Shown here: positions 46,062-46,876 of the stretch, one piece after another | Numbering within the stretch: position 1 is the stretch's first letter | Layout of the letters: each line of letters starts with the position of its first letter | IMG/VR virus record: IMGVR_UViG_3300035501_000484 | Coordinates: 1-64,000 of that record | Reading direction: 5' to 3' (one strand) | DNA from: a virus | Length of the DNA: 64,000 bases | Translations under genes and position numbers: made by a program | Notes under the pieces: generated by a model | The model's input: only the letters and a program-made list of their open reading frames with translations | What the model was told of the DNA's origin: nothing | The model's database searches: none

Positions 46062-46099
46062 CTGGGAAGGTGGGGCTTGAACCCACGACACCACGATTA
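46062..46099 (-). tRNA. 3' half of a split tRNA gene (3' anticodon stem, variable loop, T-arm, acceptor 3' strand)
   Basis: TCGTG-GTGTC-GTGGG-TTCAAGC-CCCAC-CTTCCCA-G. It pairs with the 5' half at 46841..46876: anticodon stem CACGA/TCGTG 5/5, acceptor TGGGATG/CTTCCCA 6/7. Confidence 0.5.
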
Positions 46100-46120
46100 A
46101 TCAAAAATTAAGATTTGAAC

Positions 46121-46738
46121 TTAAACCAATTCCCATTGTTCATCAGTAAAATTATTTATATCTTTTTTTCTACTTGGTAAATTTTCAGTTTTACACCATT
46201 TAGTAATTGCTTTATCACTAACTCCATATTGTTCTCCTATCTTTGTAAAAGGAACTGTTCTAATAAGATGTTTTAAAGTATCTCTATCTGGTCTTTCAAC
46301 TATTCGAGATTGTTTTTTATAACAATCTTCACATAAACCACTTTTAGAATATCTTGTAATTTCCTTGCCGCAATTTGAACAAAAATACATTTTTTTATTT
46401 TGCAATTGTCCTTTATTTTCTCTTAATTGATTAGCAATATCTTCATTATAAACTTTATACTTATATAATTCTTCCTCAGAAAAAAGTTTATCGTGAATTT
46501 CTCTATGGCAATTTGCACAAACTAAAATACATTTTTTTATTTCTGCTAAATCTTTTTCTAAATCATGGCAAGTTCCATTAGAAGAAATACCATATAATTT
46601 TTCTTCAGCATTGATATGATGAAATTCTAAAGCTGAATTAGTTTTATGATAACCACATATATTACACTGATTACCACATACCTTAATTAAATTATCTTTT
46701 CTTCTTCTTCTATAATTACTTGTTTCTGTTGCACCCAT
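46121..46738 (-). CDS. HNH homing endonuclease, encoded inside the split tRNA gene
   Basis: HNH motifs CGNQCNICGYHK...EFHHI and CANCHREIH. Internal RBS AAAGGAGTG plus ATG at 46738; the track ORF extends to the ATG at 46834, overlapping the tRNA 5' half. Confidence 0.65.
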   Translation of the reverse strand: MGATETSNYRRRRKDNLIKVCGNQCNICGYHKTNSALEFHHINAEEKLYGISSNGTCHDLEKDLAEIKKCILVCANCHREIHDKLFSEEELYKYKVYNEDIANQLRENKGQLQNKKMYFCSNCGKEITRYSKSGLCEDCYKKQSRIVERPDRDTLKHLIRTVPFTKIGEQYGVSDKAITKWCKTENLPSRKKDINNFTDEQWELV

Positions 46739-46840
46739 ATTTTTCACTCCTTTATTTTTCATACTGTATATGAAAAATAAACCGATATGATTAATTACTG
46801 TTGTCCAATGTTCATTTATGCTACTTAACACCATTTTTGC

Positions 46841-46876
46841 ACAGTCGTGTGCTCATACCAACTGAGCTACATCCCA
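46841..46876 (-). tRNA. 5' half of a split tRNA gene (acceptor 5' strand, D-arm, 5' anticodon stem, start of anticodon loop CUGU)
   Basis: TGGGATG-TA-GCTCAGTTGGTATGAGC-A-CACGA-CTGT..., with a canonical D-arm. The anticodon would be GUU (Asn) or GUG (His) depending on the junction; G73 favours Asn. Confidence 0.5.

Follow-up and report, generated by a model that had tools for sequence, protein, structure and literature searches.

The stretch analysed here, positions 1-64,000 of the virus record IMGVR_UViG_3300035501_000484 (hereafter the window), carries on its minus strand a tRNA-Asn(GUU) gene that is split within the anticodon, between U35 and U36, by a 741-nt insert (46840..46100) encoding an HNH endonuclease. 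The insert itself folds into a tRNA-like domain, the two ends of which are placed at the splice junctions. It is best explained as a mobile intron of an unclassified kind, in which a tRNA-like structure (TLS) carries an HNH gene between its D-like region and its T-arm, and it is best described as an HNH-bearing tRNA-like intron belonging to a widespread, so far unclassified family in large phages. As the insert folds like a tRNA, it is probably excised by the ordinary enzymes that trim tRNAs. The split, the covarying tRNA-like fold, the coincidence of the ends of the fold with the junctions, the distribution of the family and the presence of a ligase gene are observed directly in the sequences. 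The locus is made up as follows:

46841..46876 (minus strand): tRNA-Asn 5' exon, 36 nt (U1-U35), with the acceptor 5' strand, D-arm, stem CACGA and loop CUGU
46062..46099 (minus strand): tRNA-Asn 3' exon, 38 nt, with U36 A37 A38, stem UCGUG, variable loop, T-arm, acceptor 3' strand and G73
46100..46840 (minus strand): TLS intron carrying the HNH gene, 741 nt; called as an intron by ARAGORN, no Rfam group I/II match
46834..46840 (minus strand): acceptor-like 5' strand of the TLS, GCAAAAA (positions 1-7), pairing with 46101-46107
46818..46833 (minus strand): U8-N9-like UG and D-arm-like 4-bp hairpin GUGU-UAAGUA-GCAU; U8 is invariant, and the hairpin is supported by covariation
46775..46817 (minus strand): helix AAAUGAAC/GUUUAUUU closing a 27-nt loop, in the place of a tRNA anticodon arm; read directly from the sequences
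46747..46777 (minus strand): small hairpin UUUUUCAUA-UACAG-UAUGAAAAA and ribosome-binding site AAAGGAG ahead of the open reading frame (ORF); from reading of the sequence
46121..46738 (minus strand): HNH homing-endonuclease gene, 205 aa; from the ORF, homologs and family matches
46108..46124 (minus strand): T-arm of the TLS, UUAAG-UUCAAAU-CUUAA, with a G53-C61-type closing pair and a UUCRANY T-loop
46100..46107 (minus strand): acceptor-like 3' strand of the TLS, UUUUUGA (46107-46101), and discriminator-like U (46100), directly followed by the 3' exon

The 5' half of the host tRNA (46876..46841) reads UGGGAUG-UA-GCUC...GAGC-A-CACGA-CUGU and the 3' half (46099..46062) reads UAA-UCGUG-GUGUC-GUGGG-UUCAAGC-CCCAC-CUUCCCA-G. 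With introns allowed, ARAGORN returned one intron-containing tRNA call in the 64-kb window (c[46061,46877], tRNA-Asn, 741-nt intron), in which the anticodon stem pairs 5/5 and the acceptor 6/7 (U6.U67 mismatch), and with the insert removed the exons were called tRNA-Asn(GUU), the predicted spliced junction being GAGCACACGACUGU|UAAUCGUGGUGUCG. A split tRNA with an HNH gene in its anticodon loop and with exactly this stem pairing had been proposed from the sequence before our analysis (hereafter the original prediction), and both proposals are borne out, the one by the checked coordinates, the ARAGORN intron call and the HNH family match, the other by the ARAGORN pairing. The same prediction left the identity at either Asn (GUU) or His (GUG); Asn(GUU) stands and His(GUG) falls on the logic of the junctions and on identity elements. 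Bacterial tRNA-Asn is marked by U1-A72, G73 and the loop CUGUUAA, and a His identity is excluded because the host tRNA lacks G-1/C73. Both His(GUG) and Asn(AUU) were ruled out for the window by the discriminator base, U1-A72 and the junction logic of exact TLS removal. Also rejected were a default ARAGORN call of tRNA-Ser(tga) and a 29.3-bit Rfam tRNA match (46062-46135), which are a chimera of the T-arm-like hairpin of the insert with the host 3' half. No second intact tRNA-Asn gene was found elsewhere in the 64-kb window by ARAGORN or Rfam scans, and no intron-less allele was found in IMG/VR, where the exact 28-mer of the spliced junction is absent.

The first 7 nt of the insert pair with 7 nt located about 730 nt downstream to form an acceptor-like stem, the 3' strand of which is contiguous with the T-arm, so that the helix stacks on the T-arm. 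What a tRNA-like substrate of RNase P and RNase Z calls for is present, namely a 7-bp end stem contiguous with a 5-bp T-stem and a 7-nt T-loop, followed by a single-stranded discriminator (in the window a U, then the exon). The insert ends in UUUUUGAU where the product is Asn(GUU), or else in ...GA, and like the other tRNA genes of the window the TLS is without CCA. The UAA stop codon of the HNH gene (46123-46121) falls inside the 5' strand of the T-arm-like stem, and translation and TLS folding should therefore exclude each other. The non-coding remainder of the insert amounts to 123 nt (102 + 21); the original prediction had described an HNH ORF plus about 125 nt of non-coding sequence, which was right as far as it went but missed the tRNA-like fold. 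The 27-nt loop upstream of the gene carries a conserved motif, UUGGaCAA.A..(G/A)AUUAA. The 5' untranslated element to which it belongs, GAAC..UUUGG(A/U)CAA.A..GAUUAA..GUUY (window 46775-46817), is retained in intron copies, also precedes free-standing HNH homologs and the HNH genes of L172, L100, L106, L102, L022 and L110 (L numbers denote loci of relatives throughout), and could be an autoregulatory site or a promoter.

Covariation provides the structural evidence for this fold. Relatives were gathered by scans of viral, metagenome and genome collections, which yielded 17 distinct HNH-bearing inserts in tRNA anticodon loops, and the covariation tests were made on a gap-free alignment of these (A2). 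For the whole structure 92.3% of the cells are paired, compared with 43-47% when the partners are slid by 1-3 columns, and changes on both sides occur in 12/16 pairs, including all seven (7/7) of the end helix, the strands of which lie ~600-870 nt apart across the 17 inserts; the observed value was reached by none of 500 shuffles on any measure. The acceptor-like stem taken alone has 93% of its cells paired in the 17 homologs, with variants as different as GGUAGUU/AAUUACC, GUCAGCU/AGUUGAC, GACGAAG/UUUCGUC and CAUUCUU/AAGAAUG. Pairing in the T-arm reaches 98%, the closing G-C pair is invariant, the loop is of the UUCAAAU type and two pairs covary (A-U/U-A and A-U/G-C); the D-arm-like hairpin covaries as well (GUAU/AUAC, GAAU/AUUC, GUUU/AAAC), the loop in relatives being AAGNA. 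A G3.U70 wobble is present in the acceptor-like stem of 6/17 of the aligned tRNA-like introns and not in that of the window. G3.U70 is an alanine identity determinant for minihelices, and with it present in introns one may ask whether these are aminoacylated once excised.

The same arrangement is seen in at least 16 diverged phage contigs, in host tRNAs for Asn, Lys and Arg, with HNH proteins 40-93% identical to that of the window; two relatives with 71-73% identical HNH proteins (P0003, P0004) sit in split tRNA-Asn genes of other contigs with other neighbours. A split that recurs in relatives with the same insert is not due to chance. Removal of the insert from TLS position 1 to the discriminator or A76 restores a canonical 7-nt anticodon loop, and exact TLS excision gave products recognised as tRNA in 16/18 cases (ten Asn, five Lys and one Asp), with discriminators that fit the isotype by the E. 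coli identity rules, G73 in 9/10 Asn (L050 has U73) and A73 in 5/5 Lys. ARAGORN also proposed the isotypes His, Gln and Thr for relatives; these were set aside in favour of Asn(GUU) and Lys(UUU), as they come from junction guesses that are off by 1 nt and have misfit discriminators. Most family members have U(-1)/G(+1) at the 5' junction. At the 3' end, CCA-type relatives finish with the 7-nt strand, N and CCA and continue with exon (U)UAA, and NCCA followed by the exon occurs in 11 relatives. This tail tracks the resident tRNA genes: around the NCCA-tail loci L018, L024, L028, L050 and L180, 15/15 neighbouring tRNA genes encode CCA, and around discriminator-only loci few do, as in the window, with L020 and L198 as exceptions.

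The architecture is also found free of the HNH gene. ORF-less inserts of 44-91 nt in the same contigs consist of an acceptor/T-arm minihelix plus NCCA, as in the mini-insert of L019 (GUUAAGC-ACGGGUAUU-CGUGG-UUCAACU-CCACG-GCUUAGC-G-CCA, ACGGGUAUU being 9 nt), and the insert of L020 adds a D-like arm and a GAGA-capped hairpin, which makes its precursor a cloverleaf within a cloverleaf. A strict architecture test was passed by 20 of 191 distinct intron calls in the ±10-kb flanks, against 0.1 expected from shuffles, with insertion at 34/35, 35/36 or 36/37 and with host tRNAs that include those for Asn, Lys, Asp, Glu, Ile(UAU), Arg and Tyr. In 10/10 loci for which long flanks were available, no other gene has the anticodon of the split one, even though some of these arrays hold 15-19 other tRNAs. 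The original prediction had offered, as one account of the window locus, a tRNA freshly inactivated by insertion of a homing-endonuclease gene. This is unlikely, given that many diverged phage contigs keep the arrangement, their host halves being intact and co-varying, and that the split gene is the sole copy of its anticodon in the sampled tRNA arrays.

The ORF between the two halves contains ...ILVCANCHREIH... and its likeliest start is the ATG at 46738, behind AAAGGAG, which gives 205 aa, a length common to ~2,400 database homologs. The protein matches phrog_2255 ('HNH endonuclease', E=1.6e-20); Pfam gave only sub-threshold HNH and zinc-ribbon signals (PF21368 at E=0.026, below the cut-off), and a PDB profile search with the HNH alignment put zinc-ribbon and zinc-finger chains on top with marginal E-values at best (the HNH region of a group II intron-encoded protein at E=0.16). 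An N-terminal HNH domain is followed by a central CxxC..CxxC zinc ribbon and a C-terminal helix-turn-helix-like domain, and the invariant columns of the homolog alignment include E38-F39-H40-H41, C74-A75-N76-C77-H78-R79..H82 and a C-terminal region W-C-K...L-P. The same site is occupied in differing tRNA-Asn and tRNA-Lys alleles and in differing neighbourhoods, and other members of the HNH family are free-standing between tRNA genes, for example after an intact tRNA-Asn gene in Lak-A2. In L180 (metagenome-assembled contig CALCFD010000051.1) an 880-nt tRNA-like intron in tRNA-Arg(UCU) encodes a protein that shares only the C-terminal domain (residues 119-205) with the HNH protein of the window, which suggests domain shuffling among intron-borne nucleases. 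The HNH gene of the window is without an internal stop codon; those of L012, L018, L027-L029 and L050 contain in-frame TAG codons, and many related contigs carry tRNA(CUA) suppressor genes (L007 4153-4225; L277-L279, L299). Taken together, the suppressor genes and the TAG codons within HNH frames make these related phages appear TAG-recoded.

Our data suggest a splicing route in which RNase P would make the cut at the 5' junction, RNase Z or RNase E that at the 3' junction, and an ATP-dependent RNA ligase would seal the resulting 3'-OH/5'-P nick; to this route we give an even chance. Which enzymes make the cuts, that the exons are ligated and that the endonuclease gene homes are points that we infer. 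RNase P needs no more of its substrate than an acceptor/T-arm minihelix with N(CCA), which RNase Z and the CCA-adding enzyme recognise as well, and U(-1)/G(+1) is the preferred bacterial RNase P site. By stacking on the T-arm, the end helix would form a 12-bp acceptor/T minihelix that tRNA end-processing enzymes could recognise; RNase P would then cut 5' of TLS position 1 (U35|G+1) and leave a 3'-OH on the 5' exon, and RNase Z would cut after the TLS discriminator and leave a 5'-phosphate on the 3' exon, as RNase P leaves a 3'-OH on the upstream piece and RNase Z a 5'-phosphate on the downstream piece. In CCA-encoding phages, RNase Z or RNase E would cut directly after the CCA; endonucleolytic cuts exactly after CCA are made by RNase E on E. 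coli proline tRNAs (PMC5291269, PMC8860583). After cutting, the tRNA halves would stay paired via their acceptor and anticodon stems, and a ligase with ATP, either the phage enzyme listed below or a host enzyme, could seal the nick to give tRNA-Asn(GUU). A tRNA nicked in its anticodon is the type of substrate sealed by T4 Rnl1. The excised TLS would serve as mRNA for the HNH enzyme, which in turn would spread the intron at the DNA level into intron-less tRNA alleles of co-infecting phages.

The candidate for the joining enzyme lies 6.3 kb from the intron:

53198..54415 (minus strand): ATP-dependent RNA ligase of the Rnl5/NgrRnl-DraRnl type, with an N-terminal OB fold and a nucleotidyltransferase domain

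It matches PF09414 (E=2e-18), PF21189 and TIGR02306, and its best PDB match is the Naegleria gruberi RNA ligase (5cot, E=9e-25). The link between this gene and the intron is circumstantial. Ligases of the Rnl5 family seal 3'-OH/5'-P nicks, and Lak phages encode an RNA ligase and a CCA-adding function. Joining of the halves by an unconventional route involving the phage ligase had been put forward in the original prediction; this is plausible and now has a structural basis. The prediction also counted an RNA ligase and end-healing enzymes among the genes of the phage, and here the NgrRnl-like ligase is confirmed and a metallophosphoesterase gene is present (55773-56588), although healing would not be needed since the products of RNase P and RNase Z already have 3'-OH and 5'-P ends.

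Several observations weigh against a tRNA-like intron spliced by this route. On thermodynamic folding the AT-rich TLS is not better than shuffles (z = -0.2 to -1.2), the nested cloverleaf of L020 being the only fold recovered in this way (z = -3.55); with folding energies not significant, covariation was used as the structural evidence instead. The 1-72 pair of the window TLS is a G.A mismatch, and the junction of the window, U35|G1...U73|U36, can slide by 1 nt (U35|G...U|U36 or G34|U...A|U35). The broken host tRNAs of L009/L261 (IMGVR_UViG_3300035498_000698, the closest relative, with 93% HNH identity) and of L027 are not recognised as tRNA: the halves are chimeric in both, the acceptor pairs 4/7 in the former and the anticodon stem is unpaired in the latter, and in such mismatched hosts the anticodon stem fits the 3' half and the acceptor does not. 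These chimeras look like exon co-conversion during homing between divergent tRNA-Asn alleles, which supports mobility and also means that some intron copies are probably non-functional, and intact host halves elsewhere could in part reflect recent invasion by a mobile element. Rnl5-type ligases prefer duplex nicks over anticodon-loop nicks, and a ligase was found within ±10 kb of only 1/79 HNH loci, a weak test on contigs that are fragments. Likewise, the window ligase has eight relatives in IMG/VR and none of them is on an intron-carrying contig, and fragmentary contigs make such co-occurrence counts uninformative. A further point is a second intron class in which the TLS is flush with the 3' junction and a 25-36-nt spacer separates it from the 5' exon (L259 2474-2660, Lak-A2, tRNA-Thr; L260 991-1206, Lak-B3; L043 1477-1671; L057 1829-1997; further members are L037, which is in Lak-B3 with L260, L292 and L306). 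Often beginning with UACAG or UACGG, the spacer contains a small hairpin, and in some cases it is complementary to the anticodon. With such a spacer the RNase P cut cannot be the 5' splice site, and another factor may act generally.

The known intron classes do not account for the insert. The group I core (RF00028) had no match at E<=10 in 45500-47400 nor at E<=0.05 in 39400-49400, and at permissive Rfam thresholds no group I or II intron was detected in the inserts of the six relatives L001, L007, L018, L050, L093 and L028; as positive controls, group I introns were recovered in L205 (100.7 bits), L189 (91.8 bits) and the tRNA-Phe intron of L001 (44.9 bits). A group I/II scan covering 46100-46840, named as a check by the original prediction, gave no Rfam match, and the view expressed there that this is not a standard group I intron is upheld, introns with related HNH genes in tRNA-Asn genes of bacterial metagenome-assembled genomes scoring 92-101 bits. 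Equally correct were its remarks that no omega-G fits and that the non-coding remainder is small, as the insert ends in U (or A). A group I intron was accordingly rejected (the 5' exon does end in U35, but omega-G is missing, the insert ending UUUUUGAU/GA and CCA-type relatives ending NCCA, and there is no core), as was a group II intron, as the insert starts GCAAAAA and not GUGYG, the AY rule fails, only 123 nt are non-coding, Rfam gives no match and the HNH ORF is without a reverse transcriptase domain. Bulge-helix-bulge (BHB) introns have two 3-nt bulges flanking a 4-bp helix, usually at 37/38; on inspection this motif is absent, and a 7-bp helix stacked on the T-arm has the junctions at its base, at position 35/36.

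Three other explanations have to be set against splicing by tRNA-processing enzymes. The insert may be a selfish cassette whose tRNA-like ends let RNase P and RNase Z release or stabilise the HNH mRNA from a polycistronic tRNA transcript, the tRNA-Asn being dead. There is no catalytic RNA in the insert and ligation is a step that we only infer; the free-standing HNH homologs between tRNA genes, the two relatives with chimeric, unrecognisable hosts and the frequent dispensability of phage tRNA genes also fit such a cassette. However, it would leave unexplained why 16/18 host tRNAs are intact after exact TLS removal, why the split gene is the sole copy of its anticodon in 10/10 arrays, why ORF-less mini-introns with no mRNA to release persist in otherwise intact tRNAs and why Lak introns are reported to be conserved across cohorts, and mRNA release does not need ends that are flush with the tRNA loop to the nucleotide. 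We consider it unlikely. Still less probable is the use of other enzymes, with a dedicated phage or host endonuclease reading the tRNA-like fold, or an RtcB-type ligase joining cyclic-phosphate/5'-OH ends after healing, and no part for RNase P or RNase Z. The spacer-containing class is not explicable by RNase P geometry, the metallophosphoesterase gene lies near the ligase gene, and the tRNAs that are hit (Asn, Lys, Asp, Glu, Tyr, Arg) are classic targets of anticodon nucleases, but the fold matches the classic RNase P/Z substrate even in such details as NCCA and the U-1/G+1 junction, the type of tail goes with the 3' processing of resident tRNAs, and no endonuclease came to light as a candidate.

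It is very improbable that the insert is a cryptic self-splicing ribozyme, be it a new one or a strongly reduced group I intron whose core overlaps the ORF. Such a ribozyme would agree with a 5' exon ending in U, as in group I introns, and with an HNH N-terminal domain 40-56% identical to homing endonucleases that true group I introns carry at this 35/36 site in bacterial tRNA-Asn. The absence of an RF00028 match at E<=10 against 92-101 bits for controls, an intron end in U (or A) rather than G, and a non-coding part of 123 nt all argue against it, the ORF-less members of 44 nt are, as simple minihelices, too short to hold a splicing ribozyme, and the covarying structure is cloverleaf-like and not P3-P9. 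Removal of a tRNA-like intron by tRNA-processing enzymes remains our preferred reading. We tentatively propose, at slightly less than even confidence, an intron class to be added to group I, group II/spliceosomal and BHB introns, which would be tRNA-shaped and non-catalytic, would be excised by RNase P and RNase Z/E with no dedicated splicing endonuclease, would be joined by an RNA ligase and would be spread by an embedded HNH gene.

The window contains further features. A gene for a DUF2828/DUF7788 protein (37780-39249, minus strand) adjoins the tRNA array and, with the metallophosphoesterase gene (55773-56588) near the ligase and the ligase gene itself, may form an RNA-repair or RNA-processing neighbourhood. 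tRNA genes missed by ARAGORN are present at 45705-45772 and 44690-44758 (both minus strand; Rfam 44.6 and 40.7 bits), of which the former has an odd anticodon arm and may be Ile(UAU). A search of the window for further tRNA-like hairpins outside known tRNAs returned two, the tRNA at 44690-44758 and an orphan tRNA 3'-part at 45332-45395 (minus strand) with a CAU anticodon arm, the T-arm AUCAG-UUCAAUU-CUGAU and the acceptor strand GCGUAGC-A; it is without a matching 5' acceptor strand nearby and is kept in the closest relative (L009 2660-2854). Other mobile-element genes of the window encode a LAGLIDADG endonuclease (3314-4132, minus strand), a GIY-YIG domain protein (7528-8499, minus strand) and an RVT_1 reverse transcriptase (28160-29401, plus strand).

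To our knowledge, the bacterial tRNA introns known so far are all self-splicing, mostly group I and a few group II. If the proposed route is correct, this would be the first bacterial or phage intron removed by housekeeping tRNA-processing enzymes, and it would account for the 'enigmatic' tRNA introns of megaphages, for which no description of a mechanism was found in searches of the literature for nested-tRNA, minihelix or tRNA-like introns and for follow-up studies of Lak introns. It would also give large phages a new reason to carry RNA ligases and CCA-adding enzymes, the ligases having a housekeeping role in tRNA splicing besides the repair of anticodon-nuclease damage. For annotation there is a blind spot, as bacterial-mode tRNA finders miss split genes or mis-call their isotype (ARAGORN gave Ser, His, Gln and Thr for Asn and Lys), and phage tRNA repertoires are consequently under-counted. 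The 44-nt minihelix introns are a simple system open to direct in vitro testing.

Group I introns with HNH homing endonucleases at position 35/36 of tRNA-Asn, which self-splice in vitro, have been described from Patescibacteria (Nakagawa et al., 2026; PMC13011429). They share with the window intron the target tRNA-Asn, the 35/36 site, a 5' exon ending in U and an HNH N-terminal domain 40-56% identical over ~80 residues, whereas they have a full core (92-101 bits), end in G and splice themselves, and the window intron is tRNA-like and without a core. One endonuclease lineage thus occupies the same tRNA-Asn site in two unrelated RNA contexts, group I and tRNA-like. Archaeal and eukaryal BHB introns, processed by a splicing endonuclease with RtcB or Trl1, resemble the window intron in protein-dependent removal from the anticodon loop and enzymatic ligation, as far as these are proposed for the latter, which differs in its site (35/36 and not 37/38), in having no BHB and in a predicted end chemistry that is the opposite (3'-OH/5'-P). 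Bacteria and phages have no splicing endonuclease that we know of. In T4 tRNA repair (PrrC nick, Pnkp, Rnl1) a phage RNA ligase likewise seals a break in the anticodon loop, as proposed for the window; the T4 break is host damage that needs healing, whereas that of the window would be programmed and need none, and its ligase is Rnl5-like rather than Rnl1.

In its layout the intron is close to transfer-messenger RNA (tmRNA), the ends of which also pair into an acceptor stem by a T-arm, with a reduced D region, no anticodon arm and an ORF that follows the D-like part and precedes the T-arm. RNase P generates the 5' end of tmRNA, and the Rfam alpha_tmRNA model weakly matches a tRNA containing a mini-intron (L001 6196-6374, 30 bits). 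Unlike tmRNA, the window element is lodged in the anticodon loop of another tRNA and encodes a 205-aa nuclease with its own ribosome-binding site instead of a tag peptide, and aminoacylation and trans-translation are features of tmRNA for which the window element gives no evidence. There is also a likeness to the 'enigmatic introns' in the tRNAs of Lak megaphages, reported at a time when phage tRNA introns were said to be without precedent and given neither a structure class nor a mechanism (Devoto et al., 10.1101/356790; Nat Microbiol 2019). In the introns of Lak-A2 and Lak-B3 the tRNA-like part is preceded by a spacer of 27-31 nt and there is no ORF, while the window intron has an ORF and no spacer, and the HNH homolog of Lak-A2 is the free-standing one beside an intact tRNA-Asn gene. 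Both are nonetheless phage introns in a tRNA anticodon loop that themselves resemble a tRNA, and the Lak genomes too have HNH homologs and an RNA ligase.

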